Source of the DNA: a virus
Reading direction: 5' to 3' (one strand)
Length of the DNA: 40,877 bases
Virus genome (UHGV): UHGV-1515682
The stretch's first letter is position 1. The number at the start of each line of letters is the position of its first letter. The position numbers and the translations under genes are program-made. Below, piece after piece: positions 6,184-40,877 of this stretch. The notes beneath the pieces were generated by a model, which worked only from the letters and a program-made list of their open reading frames with translations, searched no databases and had not been told where the DNA came from.

Positions 6184-6202
6184 AACTTGTTACCTCGGTC
6201 TG

Positions 6203-6336: not shown

Positions 6337-6921
6337 TTATTGTTTGCTTTTTTCGTTCTGGTTGATGACAAATTCAATGTAACTTTCGATCTTTGCTTTC
6401 TCTGTTTCAGGTAACAATGCGTAGCGCGAGCGGTCATAGTTGATAGTTGCAGGGTCGTGCGGGTGAATCAGTAGTTCATATCCGTGACGCCCGAATGCAG
6501 ATGCAACATTCTCCAGGGTGGAAATGGAAACGCTGACCTCATTGTTTAACAGGCGGCTGATTGTCACCTGGGCTACGCCGGATGCGCGGTGAAGTTTTCC
6601 CTGTGTTGAAAGGTCGCGGCTTTCGCTCATCCAGCGTTCCAGGTTGTGAGCCGCCAGCTGGCCAATGTCGCTTGGGCCGACAGGCTGAAAACCTTCCTGA
6701 GAAAGCGAGCGATCGATATCAAGCCAGTTACGGGGTTTATTGGCGGCAGCTTCAATTTTTCGTGCAACCTGGTCGCCGATAACCTTCTTGCCAAGAGCCC
6801 AGCGGTTTACCAGATTTGCCTGAGTTCCAAGTTTTTCTGCCATCCGCGTCTGAACACCATTGAATTCACGGTCGATCAAGTCGTTGAGATTTTGCCTGCG
6901 GACGTCCTGGATACTTTTCAT
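6337..6921 (-). CDS. CI-like repressor with two HTH (XRE-type) regions and no recognisable S24 peptidase domain
   Basis: 194 aa; two XRE-like HTH stretches (…TRMAEKLGTQANLVNRWALGKK… and …ASGVAQVTISRLLNNEVSVSISTLENVA…); divergent from cro-like gene across an operator-rich intergenic region; no S24-like Ser/Lys motifs. Confidence 0.65.
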   Translation of the reverse strand: MKSIQDVRRQNLNDLIDREFNGVQTRMAEKLGTQANLVNRWALGKKVIGDQVARKIEAAANKPRNWLDIDRSLSQEGFQPVGPSDIGQLAAHNLERWMSESRDLSTQGKLHRASGVAQVTISRLLNNEVSVSISTLENVASAFGRHGYELLIHPHDPATINYDRSRYALLPETEKAKIESYIEFVINQNEKSKQ

Positions 6922-7306: not shown

Positions 7307-7327
7307 TATCCAGCTACAACCCTCTGT

Positions 7328-7351: not shown

Positions 7352-7361
7352 ATATCTATTC

Positions 7362-15695: not shown

Positions 15696-15699
15696 GATT

Positions 15700-15767: not shown

Positions 15768-15790
15768 TGAGTTATGCCTTCCGTGGCTGT
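15768..15790 (-). terminator. Rho-independent terminator downstream of tRNA (minus strand)
   Basis: Minus-strand GCCCGG-TTCG-CCGGGC followed by T7 (A-run 15768-15774 on + strand). Confidence 0.55.
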
Positions 15791-15917: not shown

Positions 15918-15994
15918 TGGCGTGGCATGCAGGATTCGAACCTGCGACCAACCGCTTAGAAGGCGGTTGCTCTGTCCAACTGAGCTAATGCCAC
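15918..15994 (-). tRNA. tRNA-Arg (anticodon UCU)
   Basis: Hand-folded cloverleaf: acceptor GTGGCAT/ATGCCAC, D-arm GCTC…GAGC, anticodon stem ACCGC/GCGGT with loop CTTCTAA, T-arm GCAGG-TTCGAAT-CCTGC, discriminator G, encoded CCA. Confidence 0.85.
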
Positions 15995-32308: not shown

Positions 32309-32689
32309 ATGAGAAAAGTATTTTTGATTTTTGGATTTATGCTTCTCGTTGGATGCCAGTCAGCTGCACAGTTTGAAAGAAATATGCTTACGTGGCGCGG
32401 GCAGAGTATAGACGCAATGGTTCAGCAGTGGGGGTATCCTCAGGGAGAGCTTACATCTCCAGATGGAAACAGAGTGTATGTTTACTCAAGCTCTGGTAGT
32501 TATAACGTACCACAAACCACAACGTATAATACTACGTCTAATCTAATTGGTAATACTATATATTCAAACACATACGCAACAACTGATGGCGGTTATACAC
32601 TCCATTTCAGTTGCTCTGTTTACGTTGAGTTTGGTGCTGATAAGATTATTAAAAATGTTACATGGCGCGGTAATAATTGCGTTGCGTGA
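32309..32689 (+). CDS. Cargo lipoprotein
   Basis: 126 aa; signal peptide with lipobox (MRKVFLIFGFMLLVGC); AT-rich; Ser/Thr/Asn/Tyr-rich mature region. Confidence 0.6.
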   Translation: MRKVFLIFGFMLLVGCQSAAQFERNMLTWRGQSIDAMVQQWGYPQGELTSPDGNRVYVYSSSGSYNVPQTTTYNTTSNLIGNTIYSNTYATTDGGYTLHFSCSVYVEFGADKIIKNVTWRGNNCVA

Positions 32690-32697
32690 CATGTCAC
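32686..32697. repeat. Perfect 12-bp palindrome GTGACATGTCAC (copy 2)
   Basis: Overlaps stop codon of lipoprotein gene; immediately followed by terminator. Confidence 0.5.
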
Positions 32698-32722
32698 AGG
32701 CCGCTTTCGCGGCCTTGTTTTT
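32698..32722 (+). terminator. Rho-independent terminator after lipoprotein gene
   Basis: aggccgc-tttc-gcggcct hairpin followed by tgttttt. Confidence 0.65.
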
Positions 32723-32882
32723 AACGAATGCCACCGCCACCCGGGCGGGAATCCGCAGAACGCCCACCGCAGCGGGAGCCGTCAGCGGCAGTATCGCTGT
32801 CGTGCTGACAACGACCGGCAAAGGCCTGAGTTGAAGCTACCAGAGACAACAAAACGAACAGTGCAGCAAATGCTTTTTTCAT
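32721..32882 (-). CDS. Possible small secreted peptide (53 aa)
   Basis: Internal ATG gives MKKAFAALFVLLSLVASTQAFA signal-peptide-like N-terminus; mature part low-complexity and GC-rich, so may be spurious. Confidence 0.25.
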   Translation of the reverse strand: MKKAFAALFVLLSLVASTQAFAGRCQHDSDTAADGSRCGGRSADSRPGGGGIR

Positions 32883-32943
32883 TGTGACATTTCCATCTAT
32901 AAGCCACCTCAATGTGGCGTCAATGAGTGTAGCACTGACTTTT

Positions 32944-32966
32944 GTTTCGTCCACAAAAAAGCCCGC
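32944..32966 (-). terminator. Rho-independent terminator after 32981-33613 gene
   Basis: Minus-strand AGAAGCCCGC-AGCG-CGGGCTT followed by T6. Confidence 0.6.
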
Positions 32967-32980
32967 GCTGCGGGCTTCTA

Positions 32981-33613
32981 TTAATGCAGTTTATCTTTGC
33001 TTATAACCAGTAGTCTGTGGGTATGCACATCTTTATCACTGCCCCAACAGAAATCAGCCCACTGGCTATAGAAATCATCCCATGATGTCATGAAGCTAAG
33101 AGGTCTATCTTCTTCAGAGCCATCTGAAACGTATACATTATATCCTGGGGTGTTTATAGCCCAAGAAATCATTCTTTCCCAGAATCTTCTCCCATCGATT
33201 GTTTGTTGCTCATCAGATACAACGATCGCATATTGCTCTAGGAAGAACTGAAAAAAAATCTGAGGCAAACCATGAACAGCACGGTCATGAATAACATTAG
33301 GCGTACGCCATACCATGATCTGCGTACATGTTCTTTTGGCTTCGACGATATCTTCCCGAAAGATTAACTTAACCGCATACACCGTTTCTGGAGTATCGCT
33401 GGTAGTAATCATTCTGTAATGATCGCCATTACAAGATTTTACAAGGCGATAACCATAAGGTGTTGTGAATCCCGGAAGAACGAAGTCAACCACACCTTTC
33501 GCTAAGTAGCTTTCGGTGTGACTAGTGTTCTTCTCAGACATGTTCAGTTTTCTATCGAAATCTGCTTCTGGGATAATGTATGGCATCGCTTTTCTTGTTG
33601 TATTTGTTCTCAT
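32981..33613 (-). CDS. Cargo protein of unknown function (210 aa)
   Basis: AT-rich ORF with own terminator and operator-like site 60 bp upstream; no recognisable motif. Confidence 0.55.
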   Translation of the reverse strand: MRTNTTRKAMPYIIPEADFDRKLNMSEKNTSHTESYLAKGVVDFVLPGFTTPYGYRLVKSCNGDHYRMITTSDTPETVYAVKLIFREDIVEAKRTCTQIMVWRTPNVIHDRAVHGLPQIFFQFFLEQYAIVVSDEQQTIDGRRFWERMISWAINTPGYNVYVSDGSEEDRPLSFMTSWDDFYSQWADFCWGSDKDVHTHRLLVISKDKLH

Positions 33614-33672
33614 TTCGTCCTCCCATGTTTGGCTACAGGACGCGTTTTGAAGGGAAGATTAAAAATGCTTTC

Positions 33673-33687
33673 TTACCCTTGAGGTAA
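33673..33687. promoter_or_regulatory. Dyad operator-like site ttacccttgaggtaa
   Basis: Perfect TTACC-N5-GGTAA upstream of 33613 gene start. Confidence 0.5.
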
Positions 33688-33758
33688 TAGTACGCTATTC
33701 ACCCCAAGTCTGCAATCTGTACAGAATTATTTAAAGGTACGTCCCTGTGCCGCCGCCG

Positions 33759-34445
33759 TCAGAAGAACCCTGCCTTGTCGTTGATGTACTCCGCGTGCGT
33801 CTGGATATCACGCAGGCATTTGCTCACACCAACGATGTAACAGAACATGGTGGTCAGCTCCGCCGCCGCGCCCGATACGTCGTGCCCGTCTTCCTGTAAC
33901 TGGTTCAGCAGATTCATCAGCAGTGAGTTCTCCGTCAGGCCGAGAACACCAGACGGCGAATGAATCAGGCTACGGTAGCCTGGCTTCAGTGGGGCACTGT
34001 AGGTTTTGTTCTCTATCTTCATCGCCTGCATTACTGCTGACGCCGTGGCGTTGGCTACCTGGTCGGCAACCATCTTTATGCGTTCTTCCTGCGGGAGCGA
34101 GTTTTTAATGTAACTTCCGGTGCGGCGGATCTGAGGAAGAACCTCACCTGTAACCCATTTACGAAAGCGGTATGGGATAGTGCCTGGTGTCACCGCATCG
34201 CGGCAGCGGAGGATCAGTGTGTAGAGGCCTGACTCGTTGATAATATTGGTTTCGCCTTGACGGCCTAAGTTAAATTTAGCCCTTTCATCATCATCAAGAG
34301 ATTTTATTGACATAGTGGGGTTTGTCAGTTGAAGAGCTTTAATAACGTCTTTGGCAACAAACCAAGGATTTCCATCAATAACAATGGCTCGAATGGTTGC
34401 TTCTGATTCAAAATGAAAAACAGATGGGGTTACGTTAGCAGTCAT
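33759..34445 (-). CDS. Bro-N domain antirepressor-like protein
   Basis: 228 aa from ATG 34445; N-terminal Bro-N signature (FHFESEATIRAIVIDGNPWFVAKDV…GLYTLILR…RFRKWVTGEVLPQIRRTGSY); C-terminal ~70 aa homologous to the product of 35591-35848. Confidence 0.75.
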   Translation of the reverse strand: MTANVTPSVFHFESEATIRAIVIDGNPWFVAKDVIKALQLTNPTMSIKSLDDDERAKFNLGRQGETNIINESGLYTLILRCRDAVTPGTIPYRFRKWVTGEVLPQIRRTGSYIKNSLPQEERIKMVADQVANATASAVMQAMKIENKTYSAPLKPGYRSLIHSPSGVLGLTENSLLMNLLNQLQEDGHDVSGAAAELTTMFCYIVGVSKCLRDIQTHAEYINDKAGFF

Positions 34446-34721
34446 AGTGATCACCTTTGTAGTTAGGTTAATCACCACTACCGACGCCAATCGGTTGGTG
34501 GTGAACTGTGCAGGGTTGGCGTAACCGGCTACAAAGGACCCGGCGCACCTTTCGGTGCCCCCACACAGCCCACCATAGAATAGGTGCGCTTTACACATAA
34601 AAAAACCGCTTATGCGGCATATGTGCCTCTGTAGTAATCCGGGACGCCAATCCCGGCACTGGATTTTGCCAGTGCCCGATTACTATGGCACAAGAGGAGT
34701 GCGATGTAAATTTACCGTAAA

Positions 34722-34736
34722 GGTAATGATAAGCGC
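34722..34736. promoter_or_regulatory. Dyad operator-like site ttaccgtaaaggtaa
   Basis: Perfect TTACC-N5-GGTAA in divergent region between ant and 34840 gene. Confidence 0.5.
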
Positions 34737-34804
34737 GAAGAAACATTAAAATCAACCGTATTTGGTTGATTGCGTTTAACGCTTGATCACCTGAAAGCAA
34801 GATA

Positions 34805-34819
34805 TTACCTTTAAGGTAA
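34805..34819. promoter_or_regulatory. Dyad operator-like site ttacctttaaggtaa
   Basis: Perfect TTACC-N5-GGTAA 21 bp upstream of ATG 34840. Confidence 0.5.
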
Positions 34820-34839
34820 TGTTATTGTGAGGAAAAGCA

Positions 34840-35568
34840 ATGGAAGTTTTCTGGATAGTTGTTGGTGTGGTTGCGGTGATTATTTACGTTATCAACCAGA
34901 ACAAGACTAAGATCTCTGATCGTACGGTCGTTAATCATAACAAAACGATAAAGACCGAAGATGGGGAGATAACGATTAATCGTACACAGGTGATAGAACA
35001 CACCTCTACTCAGTTTCAAAAAACTGGAGGTAATGCGCCTAATATTTCCGCACCTCCTGCTTATGATAGTGCGGTAATCCAGACATATTATAAACAGCAG
35101 GAGTTAGCAAAAGAGAGGCAACTGATTCAGCCAAAGCCGTTTACAGCTGAGATTCCACCTGGAGTGTCAACGCGTCCGGCATATCATGGAAGATTCCCTG
35201 GTGATGACATATCGTCTCAGTCATCTAAAAAAGCACCTCAGGCAATATCAGAGCCAGCAAGAATACCTTCTGTATCGCCGCCAAAAGAAGAATCAGCTAA
35301 CAGAGTTTCAAGTGGTAGCAAGCAGTGCTTGCGATGCAGAATAAACCTTCCATATGAAAAATTCAGGAAATCGTCAAAAAATCCAGATGGATTGACTAAA
35401 TGGTGTGCAAGGTGTCTCGATGGCCCAAAGAATACACGCCATATGAAGTGGTGCCCAATTTGTAATGTCCGCAGAAAACGAACCAGCTTTTACCCTAATA
35501 ATCAAAATGCGGACGGCTTAATGGCATGGTGCAAAACGTGCTGGGATGAGCACAAAGCGAAACGATAG
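34840..35568 (+). CDS. Membrane-anchored protein with two C-terminal zinc-ribbon-like repeats
   Basis: 242 aa; N-terminal TM helix; repeated C-x2-C…DG…W-C-x2-C units. Confidence 0.55.
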   Translation: MEVFWIVVGVVAVIIYVINQNKTKISDRTVVNHNKTIKTEDGEITINRTQVIEHTSTQFQKTGGNAPNISAPPAYDSAVIQTYYKQQELAKERQLIQPKPFTAEIPPGVSTRPAYHGRFPGDDISSQSSKKAPQAISEPARIPSVSPPKEESANRVSSGSKQCLRCRINLPYEKFRKSSKNPDGLTKWCARCLDGPKNTRHMKWCPICNVRRKRTSFYPNNQNADGLMAWCKTCWDEHKAKR

Positions 35569-35584
35569 GCCGCTCTTGCGGCCT
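35567..35584. terminator. Hairpin between convergent genes
   Basis: aggccgc-tctt-gcggcct stem-loop overlapping stop of 34840-35568. Confidence 0.45.
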
Positions 35585-35590
35585 TTAAAT

Positions 35591-35848
35591 TTACCGGGTT
35601 TGTTTTCGTAATTGTTCGGCACAATAGTCGAGATGTGTTTGCAGATCCCGCATAGACATCTGTGAGCTGGTGACGTAGTTAATCAGTGCAGTCAGTTCGG
35701 CAAGTGGGCCATCGACATTAAATCCATCCTTATCGAGATCCCGGAGTAATTTCATCAAGTGCGATCCCTCCACCAGTGACCTGACGCCTCCCGGCGTGTG
35801 AATCCTTTCGGTAAATCCGTCTTCCAGTGGATAGTGATACTGCTGCAT
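35591..35848 (-). CDS. Small antirepressor-like protein behind a LexA box
   Basis: 85 aa from ATG 35848 (MQQYHYPLEDGF…) with GGAGAAG RBS; homologous to C-terminal domain of Bro-N protein; near-consensus LexA box 20 bp upstream. Confidence 0.6.
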   Translation of the reverse strand: MQQYHYPLEDGFTERIHTPGGVRSLVEGSHLMKLLRDLDKDGFNVDGPLAELTALINYVTSSQMSMRDLQTHLDYCAEQLRKQTR

Positions 35849-35867
35849 CTTATCTTCTCCATGCAAT

Positions 35868-35887
35868 AACTGTATGTTTATACAGTA
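35868..35887. promoter_or_regulatory. LexA (SOS) box AACTGTATGTTTATACAGTA
   Basis: CTGT-N8-ACAG with AT-rich spacer, 17/20 to TACTGTATATATATACAGTA; overlaps TATAAA -10-like hexamer on minus strand. Confidence 0.65.
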
Positions 35888-35924
35888 ACAAATAATTTGT
35901 TTGCTATCCAGCACGTTTTGCAAA

Positions 35925-35939
35925 TTACCTGAAAGGTAA
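35925..35939. promoter_or_regulatory. Dyad operator-like site ttacctgaaaggtaa
   Basis: Perfect TTACC-N5-GGTAA upstream of LexA box. Confidence 0.5.
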
Positions 35940-36043
35940 TATCTATTCGTATTTACAGCATTTCTATCCATATGTGGTTTTTCAGGTAATAGAATAACCA
36001 GATATGCGGCGCAACGGGTGCTGCGACTATCTGGAGATTTAAC

Positions 36044-38695
36044 ATGACGGTCTCAACCGAAGTTGACCACAACGAATACACTGGTAACGGAGCTACGACA
36101 TCATTTCCGTATACCTTCCGTATTTTCAAAAAATCCGACCTGGTTGTTCAGGTGTCTGACCTGAACGGGAACGTAACAGAATTGGTTCTGGATACTGACT
36201 ACACAGTAACCAATGCTGGAGGATATAATGGCGGTAATGTAATTCTGTCGAAGGCGTTGGCTAACGGTTATCATATTTCTATATCACGAGAACTCCCGGT
36301 TACGCAGGATACTGATTTGCGTAATCAGGGTAAGTTCTTCGCTGAGGTACATGAAGACGCGTTCGATAAACTGACAATGCTTATTCAAAAGTGTTTTTCA
36401 TGGATGAGGTTAGCACTTATAAAACCAAGCATTCTGGCTAACTATTATGATGCAAAAAATAATAAGATATCAAATCTAGCAAATGCCACTGACAGAAACG
36501 ATGCTGTCAATAAAGGTTATGTTGATGATCTTTTTACTGGAGGTGTAACGCCTACACCTAACAGCGCTAAAAACGATATTTTTACAAATCACCAAAGAAA
36601 GATTGTAGCTACGATGCCGCTTCTTTTTCCTGAATATGATGCGATTATGGCTGCTAACCCGTCAGCAACTTATATGTATCCTCAAGGATTCTGCGTTAGC
36701 GAAGATTTGATATACATCACTTATCCATTTGAGCCTAAACAGACGAATAATGTCGTCGCAGTATTTAACATATCTGGTATTTATCAAGGTTATTTCTATG
36801 TTCAGGCTGGCGGCCCAGGCTTCGCTGCTGAAGGAATCGTGGTTACGTCAGACTATGGCCCCAAAAAAATGTTTGTTGGTCACACAAACGGAATACTGCG
36901 TGAATTTAATATGGAGGGGGCATTATACGGAAGCAATCTGCCTCTTGTACAAAACCATGATGTTGGATTATTCAACCAGTTCAGCTACAGAAGAGGTATA
37001 TGGCTCGTTGAGCAGAATGCGCCAGAAGTAGGACAGAAAATCACAAGAACTGTACTTGCAGTGTTCGACAGTGGTTTCAATCGCCTGTCAACTATAACGC
37101 TGCCGTTACATGATGTTGGGTATGTAACTAAAAGCACCTCACCTTATGCGCCTTATTTCAACAAGCGTCAGGGTATTGCGGTAGGTGATAACTACTTTGT
37201 CTGTGGCTATGGCGGCTTCATAGCTGATGGGGCAGGAAGCGCAGGATATAACGAATATCAGGGCAGCAAAGTTTTTAACCCTGACGGTACAAAGCGAACT
37301 GAATCAATGCTTCATCCTCAGGCCATGATGGATTTAATGAAAGCCGCAGGATTGAACGTCACTCGCATAGAAAATGAAGGCGTTTGTGTTTCTCAGGATG
37401 GAAAATCCATTTATTCACTTTACATTCATCAGGAAAGAACTGGCTCTGAACCTTACAATTCAGGTTTGGTTATTTTCGAAGATTTCTCCACTGATAAAGA
37501 TGCTATCGATTTTACACCTGCATCCAGGCTTTACCGCGGATTTGATATCGATCACGCGAGCATTGGGGTATATCCCCGTAGTGCGAAGGGGATTGTTAAC
37601 CCTGTAGATGGTACGTTGTTCACTAACATGACTGAAATTCTTCGCTATATGCAGGAGATGAGTCAGAAGGCATTTAATTTTTACACAGGGACTGTCAGCA
37701 TTGCTGATATATCTGGCGTGGCAATCCCTTCCAGCACATATGTTGAAATACTGAATGCGAATAATCAGACTTTTATAGTCAACTATTATTCATCTGATAG
37801 TGGTATTAGTTATTTGGTTGCAACTAATCCTTCTGGTGACTTTGTATTTGTGCGCCAGCGACCGGCACAGTGGGCATCTAACTTAACCATTCAGCAAAAC
37901 GCAGATCCTGATACAAACCAATTAAACCGCATCACTGCATCATCATATGCCGGTGCAACTACAAACTCTCAGAAAATATTGGTCCTTGACCAGCAGGCTA
38001 CAGCTAGCGCAAATAGCTTGGTATTGGGCGGTAGTTCTTCTGTGTTTAGGTCTGCCACCACGGTGGATATTGCATGCAACAGCGACCCGACAGCATTGGG
38101 AGGAACCATACGCTGGCGGTTTTATGATACAGGTCTTCGCCCGTTTGCTGACAATACCTATAATTTTGGTCAGGCATCGTTTCGTATTAAAGACGCCTAC
38201 TTTGCAAATGCCCCAACCGTTTCATCAGATGCCACGCTGAAAACCAATCCCGAGGCAATATCAGATTTAAGTGAAATGCTTTCTTCTGATAGAGACAGCA
38301 TTCTTGATGCCTGGGGCGATATTTCTGTTGTGGCGTATCGATGGCTCGACGCTATATCCATGAAGGGCGATGGTGCCAGATGGCATTTTGGCGTCATGGC
38401 TCAGCAGGTAAGGGATGTATTCTTGGCGCACGGAATTGATGGAACCAGATTTGGCCTTCTTTGCTATGACGAGTGGGACGATATTTTTGAGCCGGTAATC
38501 GCGACTAAAGAGATTACCGATACGTCTGGTGAGTTGGTCACCGTCGAATATGACACCGGAGAACAGAGGCTGGTTAAAAAAGCGGGTAGTTCATGGGGTA
38601 TACGGCCTGACCAGTGCGCTTGGCTTGAGGCTGCATATCAGCGCCGTCGATGCGATCGTATTGAAGAGCGACTCGAACTATTGGAATCAAAATAA
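36044..38695 (+). CDS. Tailspike/tail fibre with C-terminal intramolecular chaperone (S74-like) domain
   Basis: 883 aa; conserved tail-fibre N-terminus; C-terminal SDATLKTN…HFGVMAQQV…GLLCYDEWDD resembles the autoproteolytic chaperone domain; GGAG RBS. Confidence 0.75.
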   Translation: MTVSTEVDHNEYTGNGATTSFPYTFRIFKKSDLVVQVSDLNGNVTELVLDTDYTVTNAGGYNGGNVILSKALANGYHISISRELPVTQDTDLRNQGKFFAEVHEDAFDKLTMLIQKCFSWMRLALIKPSILANYYDAKNNKISNLANATDRNDAVNKGYVDDLFTGGVTPTPNSAKNDIFTNHQRKIVATMPLLFPEYDAIMAANPSATYMYPQGFCVSEDLIYITYPFEPKQTNNVVAVFNISGIYQGYFYVQAGGPGFAAEGIVVTSDYGPKKMFVGHTNGILREFNMEGALYGSNLPLVQNHDVGLFNQFSYRRGIWLVEQNAPEVGQKITRTVLAVFDSGFNRLSTITLPLHDVGYVTKSTSPYAPYFNKRQGIAVGDNYFVCGYGGFIADGAGSAGYNEYQGSKVFNPDGTKRTESMLHPQAMMDLMKAAGLNVTRIENEGVCVSQDGKSIYSLYIHQERTGSEPYNSGLVIFEDFSTDKDAIDFTPASRLYRGFDIDHASIGVYPRSAKGIVNPVDGTLFTNMTEILRYMQEMSQKAFNFYTGTVSIADISGVAIPSSTYVEILNANNQTFIVNYYSSDSGISYLVATNPSGDFVFVRQRPAQWASNLTIQQNADPDTNQLNRITASSYAGATTNSQKILVLDQQATASANSLVLGGSSSVFRSATTVDIACNSDPTALGGTIRWRFYDTGLRPFADNTYNFGQASFRIKDAYFANAPTVSSDATLKTNPEAISDLSEMLSSDRDSILDAWGDISVVAYRWLDAISMKGDGARWHFGVMAQQVRDVFLAHGIDGTRFGLLCYDEWDDIFEPVIATKEITDTSGELVTVEYDTGEQRLVKKAGSSWGIRPDQCAWLEAAYQRRRCDRIEERLELLESK

Positions 38696-40590: not shown

Positions 40591-40741
40591 CATGGCATTT
40601 TTCATGGTACTGATTTCCGGTGACGGTATATAAAACGGTACGAGAAAAATTCATCTTTGGAAAAATGTTATCACTCAATTGGTTATGTGTGTCGTAAATA
40701 ATTGAGTGGGAATGATTTGACCCTGCACTATGAATGAACAA

Positions 40742-40768: not shown

Positions 40769-40877
40769 TGTGCACAGAAAACCCCCAGCTAGGCTGGGGG
40801 TTCCGGAAAGCTTTCAGCTTTGAGCCAGTTATTAAAACCCCTTTTGATTTGTTAAAACACCTTGCGGTCTGGCAACT

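Follow-up and report, generated by a model that had tools for sequence, protein, structure and literature searches.

Virus genome UHGV-1515682, whose 40,877 nucleotides (nt) are called the window throughout, carries on its minus strand a gene for a Bro-N antirepressor. The subject of this analysis is the leader ahead of that gene, together with the control region from which the leader is transcribed. The window is an integrated epsilon15-like (Uetakevirus) prophage of Escherichia coli. Between window positions 33600 and 35000, it shares 95.7% identity with phage TL-2011b and 92% with phiV10. The window begins with an integrase gene, and near its other end lies the sole copy within it of the attachment (att) core ATTGAGTGGGAATGATT, which is the published att core of phiV10, epsilon15, and ZX5 at the 3′ end of guaA (PMC9782041). 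An Rfam STnc490 match (102 bits, 40780–40877) lies beyond the att core and is cut by the window end; it marks where host DNA begins. The prophage repressor gene encodes a helix-turn-helix protein that is 99.5% identical to the phiV10 and ZX5 repressors. Read along the minus strand, the locus itself consists of dyad 1, a predicted promoter, an IsrK-like RNA, a C4-like RNA, a 48-nt spacer, and the ATG at 34445 (Table 1).

Table 1. Features of the antirepressor locus and of the surrounding prophage, in window coordinates
Feature	Position	Strand	Details
Bro-N antirepressor gene	33759..34445	minus	228 amino acids (aa), stop codon included; Pfam, PHROG
Shine-Dalgarno AAGGUG of the Bro-N gene	34452..34457	minus	6 nt before the ATG at 34445; read from the sequence
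b2 target CUACAAAGG	34462..34454	minus	complementary to b′; overlaps the Shine-Dalgarno AAGGUG
a2 target UUGGCGU	34490..34484	minus	complementary to a′; begins 4 nt past the C4 3′ end
C4-type antisense RNA (RF01695)	34580..34494	minus	79.5 bits against a gathering threshold of 45; model positions 1–87 of 87
a′ element ACGCCAA	34522..34516	minus	single-stranded C4 linker after hairpin 2
b′ element CCUUUGUAG	34537..34529	minus	loop of C4 hairpin 2; specificity element
Intrinsic terminator of the IsrK-like RNA	34618..34599	minus	GCCGC/GCGGU stem, then seven U; terminator scan, Rfam alignment
b1 site CUACAGAGG in the IsrK-like RNA	34634..34626	minus	duplicate of b2; one G-U pair with b′
a1 site UUGGCGU	34650..34644	minus	loop of IsrK hairpin 2; duplicate of a2
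IsrK-like RNA (RF01394)	34675..34599	minus	76.8 bits against a gathering threshold of 50; model positions 1–77 of 77
Module promoter, predicted	34682..34710	minus	−35 TTTACA (34710..34705), 17-nt spacer, TG-CATAGT (34687..34682); promoter scan
Dyad 1, TTTACCGTAAAGGTAAT	34711–34727		17 base pairs (bp); adjoins the module −35 and overlaps the −10 of the upstream promoter-like site
Second, upstream promoter-like site	34726..34755	minus	TTGATT, 18 nt, TATCAT; promoter scan only
Terminator-like hairpin between the dyads	34750..34771	minus	terminator scan; partly conserved in the alignment
Dyad 2, ATTACCTTTAAGGTAAT	34804–34820		perfect 17-bp palindrome; 20 nt upstream of the divergent 242-aa gene
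Divergent 242-aa gene	34840..35568	plus	outside the RNA module; between the two antirepressor-like genes
85-aa gene	35591..35848	minus	paralogue of the C-terminal domain of the Bro-N antirepressor; PHROG 450
LexA box CTGTATGTTTATACAG	35870–35885		near-consensus; 22 nt upstream of the 85-aa gene
Third dyad copy near the locus	35924–35940		upstream of the LexA box
Prophage repressor gene	6337–6921	minus	194 aa; helix-turn-helix
Integrase gene	193–1443
Attachment core ATTGAGTGGGAATGATT	40701–40717		sole copy within the window

The antirepressor gene and its leader

The product of the Bro-N gene matches Pfam PF02498 across residues 18–104 (72.3 bits against a gathering threshold of 25.6; expectation value (E) 5e-20) and PHROG 130, ‘anti-repressor Ant’ (E 8e-57). 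It is 82% identical overall to ORF4 of ZX5, and the two proteins are identical across roughly the C-terminal 145 residues. Overexpression of ZX5 ORF4 lowers the number of lysogens ∼1000-fold, takes the prophage titre from 10^9 to 10^6, and reduces transcription of the repressor by 75% (PMC9782041). By its sequence, the Bro-N product is a predicted antirepressor of the prophage repressor. The Pfam and PHROG matches bear out the gene named in an original prediction made from the window sequence. The start given there, at 34445, has a good Shine-Dalgarno sequence, and the homologous ATG is annotated as the start in phiV10, Tyrion, and ZX5.

The original prediction also described a leader of ∼275 nt that was GC-rich, structured, and devoid of a convincing open reading frame (ORF), and much of this description stands. 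A stretch of ∼275 nt without a conserved ORF does precede the gene. In the window, the frame upstream of Bro-N happens to be open as far as an ATG at 34598, which gives a 279-aa ORF. In the relatives, this extension runs into an in-frame stop, which lies 12 nt upstream for both phiV10 and TL-2011b and 27 nt upstream for Tyrion. Its interruption supports the absence of a convincing ORF. Structure is also evident: the 246-nt transcript folds with −106 kcal/mol, compared with −79.6 ± 4.8 kcal/mol for shuffled sequences (z = −5.5). Its composition departs only mildly from that of the window (51.4% G+C in the leader, 48.6% in the window), and of the leader only the C4 part is GC-rich (60.9%). Since dyad 1 sits upstream of the promoter, the transcribed part probably begins near 34675 and, at ∼230 nt, is shorter than the predicted 275 nt. 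In an alignment of four Uetakeviruses (the window, phiV10, TL-2011b, and Tyrion), the leader is conserved from dyad 1 to the ATG; lack of conservation in related phages was the outcome that had been set to refute a role for it.

The placement of the transcription start draws on the promoter sequence. The −10 element of the module promoter coincides with positions 2–7 of the Rfam c4-a1b1 model. The −10 of P1c4/P51b, a mapped promoter of phage P1, falls on the same model positions, which supports a start near 34675 in the window, and the element is invariant in the four Uetakeviruses. A second promoter-like site lies farther upstream, with its −10 overlapped by dyad 1. This arrangement parallels the P1 promoter P2c4/P51a, which is overlapped by an operator of the P1 repressor C1. 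Between the two dyads, the terminator-like hairpin may insulate the module from upstream transcription. On reading the sequence between the IsrK terminator and C4, we found nothing convincing as a separate C4 promoter.

Two structured RNAs and their co-varying pairing elements

We scanned the whole window against Rfam at gathering thresholds and scanned positions 32500–36500 permissively (E up to 1). Two families match the leader over the full length of their models. The original prediction had raised the possibility of a small RNA or an attenuator in the leader, and elements of both kinds are present: a terminated IsrK-like RNA, which is a potential attenuator, and a C4-like antisense RNA. 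The IsrK-like RNA has two hairpins in its 5′ part, carries the sites a1 and b1, and ends in the terminator; read-through transcripts begin with the same segment. Seven of the 12 pairs in the isrK consensus fold show compensatory changes. In the phiV10 record, a terminator is annotated at the position equivalent to the IsrK terminator.

The C4-like RNA has a minimum free energy of −45.2 kcal/mol and folds into a long closing stem around two hairpins, followed by a tRNA-like ACCA tail. A consensus fold from 13 homologues contains 27 pairs, of which 12 have compensatory changes on both sides. By homology with P1, the mature C4 RNA is predicted to span ∼78 nt (about 34574..34497), where the ends of mature P1 C4 were taken from the annotated P1 record. 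A conserved GGUGGUGA segment lies just past a2, at 34472–34478 and at homologous positions in other loci, and is a second copy of the sequence on the 5′ side of the C4 closing stem. It is able to pair with the 3′ side (UCACCAC, 34504..34498). In this alternative helix, a2 would be displayed in a hairpin loop, and the folding or processing of C4 might face competition.

The C4-like RNA carries two short elements that are complementary to sites on either side of it. The element names follow the P1 GenBank record, in which a2 directly follows C4 and b2 lies at the ribosome-binding site. Downstream, b′ forms nine Watson-Crick pairs with b2, over the Shine-Dalgarno sequence, and a′ forms seven pairs with a2. 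Upstream, the IsrK-like RNA holds a second copy of both targets, a1 and b1. The combined pattern TTGGCGT-N(5–35)-CTACARAGG occurs only at these two leader sites on the minus strand of the 40.9-kilobase window, where none is expected. Single b-type 9-mers at 7321, 21209, and 40754 have no a-type partner, and we set them aside as further C4 targets in the prophage.

Comparison of close relatives shows that the elements change together. The window and Tyrion have CUACAGAGG, CCUUUGUAG, and CUACAAAGG at b1, b′, and b2, whereas phiV10 and TL-2011b have CUAAAAGG, CCUUUUAG, and CUAAAAGG. The two pairs of phages thus differ by three coordinated 1-nt indels, one in each element. Similarly, Tyrion alone has UUGGUCU, AGACCAA, and UUGGUCU at a1, a′, and a2, the product of three coordinated 2-nt substitutions. 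That b′ changes together with both b1 and b2, and a′ together with both a1 and a2, shows that selection acts on the pairings.

The same relationship extends across 14 loci: those of the window, phiV10, TL-2011b, Tyrion, APSE-7, VT2-Sakai, PA28, SfV, Moraxella phage Mcat4, Salmonella phages SW-37 and 118970_sal3, Lys8385Vzw, an Stx2c phage, and P1. The hairpin 2 loop is the most variable part of C4 among them. It falls into 11 classes, and both target sites follow the loop. At every locus, the longest contiguous complement of the loop in the regions scanned lies 54–81 nt upstream and 29–74 nt downstream of C4, and the downstream target ends 6–10 nt before the next ATG in 10 of the 14. We then took one locus per loop class and compared the summed length of cognate pairing in these 11 loci with 20000 permutations. 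The downstream site gives 102 (permuted, 68.6 ± 4.6) and the upstream site 96 (permuted, 68.2 ± 3.7); no permutation reaches the observed value at either site.

A candidate RNA immunity switch and its alternatives

We consider it likely that the stretch between dyad 1 and the Bro-N start codon forms a module for RNA-based immunity, of the same type as P1 immI. It would then belong with the RNA immunity systems of P1 immI, P4, and Gifsy-1 IsrK, and would act directly on the antirepressor gene. In the mechanism that we propose, the sigma-70 promoter would drive transcription from near 34675. Most transcripts would end at the IsrK terminator and yield a 77-nt IsrK-like RNA with the decoy sites a1 and b1. 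Those that read through would supply the C4-like RNA and then the antirepressor mRNA. The C4-like RNA would be excised as in P1, with a 5′ end made by RNase P and a 3′ end at the tRNA-like stem and ACCA; a role for RNase P in the processing of P1 C4 was reportedly established by Hartmann et al. in 1995. The processed RNA would act in trans, with a′ pairing to a2 and b′ (CCUUUGUAG) pairing to b2. Because b2 covers the Shine-Dalgarno sequence, Bro-N would remain untranslated in a lysogen or immune cell. The a1/b1 copy in the IsrK-like RNA would compete for the C4 elements in cis and in trans, so that the ratio of IsrK-like RNA, C4, and ant mRNA would set the switch. The prophage repressor, probably seated on dyad 1 at the promoter, would add a layer of transcriptional control, as C1 does at the P1 operator Oc4.

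P1 immI is the closest model for this proposal. The P1 record lists, in order, the C1 operator Oc4, the promoters P2c4 and P1c4, a1, b1, C4, a2, b2 at the icd ribosome-binding site, icd, and ant1/ant2. P1/P7 immI and the window thus share the order of parts, from an operator at the promoter through to an antirepressor, as well as the C4 fold, and the a2 site annotated in P1 occupies the same position as a2 in the window. Processed C4 RNA represses synthesis of the Ant proteins in P1 (PMC8546580; PMC8198154). Repression of Ant by C4 is also stated in the part of PMC7313666 that cites Citron and Schuster 1990, as is the dependence of P1/P7 heteroimmunity on loop specificity; in the window, too, the loop carries specificity. 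The two systems also differ in several respects. P1 has icd, whereas the window has no icd-like ORF and its b2 lies on the antirepressor’s own Shine-Dalgarno sequence. The antirepressor is a 228-aa Bro-N protein in the window and Ant1/Ant2 in P1. The a1/b1 segment of the window has its own terminator and scores as isrK, while that of P1 does not do so at the gathering level. Finally, the window operator is a symmetric 17-bp dyad and the P1 C1 site is asymmetric, and the window phage is an integrating podovirus whereas P1 is a plasmid prophage.

Other phages share parts of this arrangement. The c4 and c4-a1b1 motifs have been described in Proteobacteria and phages by Weinberg et al. (PMC2864571). 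In the APSE phages of Hamiltonella defensa, isrK and c4 lie upstream of a BRO gene, and a′/b′ match the region upstream (PMC7313666). The architecture is identical to that of the window, with isrK, C4, and a Bro-N gene with upstream a′/b′ complements, and the present comparison confirms the co-variation. APSE differs in its loop (CCUUGUUAG), its linker (GUCUCAA), its phage lineage, and its host. APSE records label the loop a′, whereas the P1 record implies that the loop is b′. In VT2-Sakai and PA28, ant directly follows C4, as in the window.

In phage P22, to which the original prediction had compared the leader, sar is a cis-antisense RNA transcribed from the strand opposite the ant leader, and Mnt and Arc are dedicated repressors. 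P22 immI and the proposed module have in common an antirepressor gene that is silent in the lysogen, partly by way of a small RNA. In the window, however, the RNA is encoded on the same strand as the gene and would act on sites outside its own gene. The family sar has no Rfam match with E up to 1 in 32500–36500, nor any in the whole-window scan at gathering thresholds. The promoter scan finds no plus-strand promoter-like site within the leader, and no ORF lies between the promoter and ant that could be a small repressor gene of the P22 type. We rejected sar-type control on the missing sar match in 32500–36500 and the missing opposite-strand promoter-like site within the leader; the P22 analogy fails, and the c4 region of P1/P7 immI, CI/seqA of P4, and IsrK of Gifsy-1 are the right ones. 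Separately, TL-2011b has an Rfam sar match (44.8 bits against a threshold of 43; 399–466 of the compared sequence, minus strand) ∼3 kilobases from its ant module.

Several points weigh against the P1-type proposal. The c4-a1b1 family (RF03163) matches 34688..34636 along its full model (1–53 of 53; 45.1 bits, E 2.3e-9) at a score 1.6 bits under the gathering threshold of 46.7; P1, VT2-Sakai, and PA28 all score above it. The analysis demonstrates family membership, RNA structure, complementarity, and co-variation of the loop with its two targets, whereas processing, stability, and trans action of C4 are suggested here by homology alone, binding of the prophage repressor to the dyads is likewise predicted from sequence, and repression as the direction of the effect is inferred. 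In a crude duplex-energy matrix, the cognate pair does not always rank first, and the target regions of VT2-Sakai and Mcat4 score at least as well as the window’s own. Because shared a′ elements and CCUU cores dominate this matrix, it is too crude to resolve specificities, and we replaced it with the contiguous-complement counts and permutation test described above. A coupled ORF of the icd/orf45 type is also absent. A conserved AUG in the 5′ stem of C4 opens just 15 codons in the window and Tyrion and 35 in phiV10 and TL-2011b, in a frame that differs from that of ant. The details of translational control must therefore differ from those of both P1 and Gifsy-1. Lastly, in Gifsy-1, where an IsrK system has been studied most closely, the published net effect of the short RNA is activation of antirepressor translation (PMC4825925).

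This last point leads to a rival that we judge possible though not probable: activation of the Gifsy-1 type may dominate. The ant mRNA would be silent through cis pairing, the short IsrK-like RNA would pair with the C4 region in trans, remodel the mRNA, and switch Ant translation on, and the module would serve as an induction trigger in place of an immunity repressor. IsrK, orf45/STnc1160, and anrP of Gifsy-1 have been studied experimentally (PMC4825925). There, the cis fold called ‘structure A’ is translationally silent, as shown by mutation; mutations in IsrK (G28A, G31A) and at the partner positions (C162U, C159U) define the helix; and IsrK in trans raises anrP translation >100-fold (PMC4825925). 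A stable STnc1160 RNA arises downstream of IsrK and depends on the isrK promoter (PMC4825925). The window has the corresponding parts, an IsrK RNA matched in full and with its terminator, a C4-like element, and an antirepressor gene. In the minimum-free-energy fold of its 246-nt transcript, a1/b1 are paired with b′/a′ in cis, and this predicted pairing of the middle of IsrK with the C4 region resembles ‘structure A’. Salmonella phage SW-37 has a C4 match, an Ant-like start, and isrJ in this order. However, Gifsy-1 requires translation of orf45 coupled to anrP. The window has no orf45, since the C4-stem AUG and its 15 codons are not conserved in frame, and it has no isrJ match or identified target of the AntQ type. 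Moreover, the published mechanism is activation in trans, whereas the b′ loop in the window is complementary to the antirepressor’s own Shine-Dalgarno sequence, and this relationship co-varies in the 14 loci. Direct occlusion is therefore predicted, as has been shown for P1. The two modes are not mutually exclusive, as IsrK may titrate C4, and the descriptions of P1 and Gifsy-1 are probably two sides of one switch.

An unlikely variant would place the control in transcript elongation, as in P4. C4 would pair with the nascent transcript and cause termination, either at the IsrK terminator or via Rho after a block to translation, and the effect would be mainly transcriptional. P4, which we liken to the window by its description, has a processed RNA (CI RNA) inside its own leader, with complementary sites upstream and downstream (seqA, seqB, seqC). 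A 2023 paper notes that the Rfam profiles for C4 and isrK pick up relatives of both CI and seqA of P4 (PMC10111431), and the authors of the Gifsy-1 study draw the same parallel (PMC4825925). An intrinsic terminator follows b1 by 8 nt in the window, and a putative alternative hairpin (GGCA/UGCC) overlaps b1 and the 5′ arm of the terminator stem. On the other hand, P4 controls transcription termination of replication genes and not the translation of an antirepressor. The position of b2 on the Shine-Dalgarno sequence in most loci is not required by transcriptional control alone, and constitutive STnc1160 left the effect of IsrK undiminished in Gifsy-1 (PMC4825925).

Two simpler explanations fare worse. 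It is highly improbable that the leader is only a cis-acting structured 5′ untranslated region or attenuator, with no stable small RNA and with Rfam matches that are relics. RefSeq annotates nothing over the related leader in the 941 E. coli genomes that carry it, as such an explanation would allow. It is opposed by the three-way co-variation of b′/b1/b2 and a′/a1/a2 in close relatives, by full matches to both Rfam models with compensatory pairs, and by the documented stable RNAs that are its homologues in P1 and Gifsy-1. Next to no weight attaches to a coding leader, which would start the antirepressor at ATG 34598 as a 279-aa protein or encode a leader peptide. The frame is open from 34598 in the window, but the stops in phiV10, TL-2011b, and Tyrion interrupt it, the 1-nt indels in b′ and b2 shift it, and only ATG 34445 has a good Shine-Dalgarno sequence and a homologue annotated as the start in other phages. 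We accordingly rejected this extension, which is not conserved.

Candidate operators, neighboring genes, and distribution of the module

The original prediction noted operator-like sites at 34722 and 34805 near the antirepressor gene. Both positions fall inside real dyads, but these are not dedicated ant operators, as their motif is found prophage-wide. The window holds 17 copies of ATTACC-N5-GGTAAT with at most two mismatches, where 1.15 are expected, and none of 100 shuffled sequences reaches 17. Fourteen of the dyads are intergenic (135, 6202, 6264, 6976, 7361, 9283, 9345, 12779, 15699, 16315, 33672, 34711, 34804, and 35924). The copy at 135 precedes the integrase gene, those at 6202 and 6264 on one side and 6976 on the other flank the repressor gene, and those at 7361, 9283, 9345, 15699, 16315, and 33672 lie near other gene starts. 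Two pairs, 6202/6264 and 9283/9345, are each spaced exactly 62 bp apart. Among the four Uetakeviruses, dyad 1 has conserved arms and a variable spacer. The prophage repressor probably uses the dyad as its operator, one that recurs at many promoters in a manner that resembles the C1 operators of P1. We found no description of such a multi-operator regulon in the literature searched.

A second antirepressor-like gene lies 3′ of the 242-aa gene on the plus-strand numbering and encodes an 85-aa protein with 41% identity to residues 147–224 of the Bro-N product (BLASTP, E 2e-20). Its upstream region holds the LexA box and, beyond it, the third dyad copy. The pattern CTGT-N8-ACAG is found in the window only at 15787, 20328, and 35870 and does not occur in 34446–34840, ahead of Bro-N. 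We therefore rejected LexA control of the Bro-N gene, in agreement with the original prediction, which had seen no LexA box here and had held that the two antirepressor-like genes are under different control. By its sequence, the 85-aa gene is probably an SOS-controlled mini-antirepressor, which suggests that the C-terminal domain common to both proteins contacts the repressor.

Between these two genes, the divergent 242-aa gene encodes a product with a hydrophobic, membrane-anchor-like N terminus and two Cys-rich, Zn-ribbon-like repeats at its C terminus. It matches PHROG 6762 (E 6e-150) and, weakly, endonuclease VII, Lar, and Zn-ribbon-like families. TL-2011b has the gene, whereas phiV10 and Tyrion lack it at the equivalent place, so this is probably an accessory gene gained by insertion. 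A consensus scan detects no promoter for it.

Of 5426 complete E. coli genomes, 941 carry related leaders, in up to three places per genome; the leader of E. coli 118UI and ML35 is identical to that of the window. RefSeq E. coli genomes have nothing annotated over the leader, and phage records treat it unevenly. The ZX5 record annotates the C4 region as an ‘ash family protein’ coding sequence (1627–1754 of the compared sequence), the VT2-Sakai record as ‘orf34, hypothetical protein’ (1563–1736 of the compared sequence), and the phiV10 record marks only the terminator in the module. The repressor/antirepressor paper on ZX5, the only experimental one for the group, does not mention the RNAs (PMC9782041). 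What is new here is the module in Uetakeviruses, where it had been unannotated, mis-annotated, or undiscussed; the class of mechanism is textbook, and the APSE arrangement has already been described. The finding explains how widespread E. coli and Salmonella prophages of the epsilon15, phiV10, and ZX5 type probably keep their antirepressor silent, and it corrects the annotation of the C4 region in ZX5, VT2-Sakai, and RefSeq E. coli. It also offers a simple natural system in which to ask whether the P1 view, that C4 represses, and the Gifsy-1 view, that IsrK activates, are halves of one switch. The system suits this purpose because no icd or orf45 intervenes and because, between close relatives, b1, b′, and b2 have been altered in concert by 1-nt changes.

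Most of the modules compared have a′ in common and are set apart by the b′ loop alone. An isrK and C4 module is also present in Moraxella catarrhalis phage Mcat4 (1495–1740 of the compared sequence), in which both host and phage are unrelated. Its b′ core CCUUUGUAG and its a′ element ACGCCAA are identical to those of the window, with matching targets, so that the two phages have the same b′ and a′ code.

We regard a reading that combines these observations as a long shot. It would posit one non-cleavable repressor, two paralogous antirepressors with a common C-terminal domain, and IsrK-like decoys that work across phages. As part of it, the 85-aa version may be under LexA and repressor control and respond to DNA damage, while the Bro-N version may be held by the C4/IsrK pair. 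Given the shared a′, the differing b′, and the presence of multiple modules per genome, terminated IsrK-like RNAs could be diffusible decoys for the C4 of other phages, resident or incoming. If true, unrelated phage lineages would be linked at the level of RNA by a channel for cross-induction or cross-immunity.

The prophage also contains a tRNA gene (15921–15994, minus strand; Rfam tRNA, 73 bits). Its neighbors are the dyads at 15699 and 16315 and the CTGT-N8-ACAG match at 15787.

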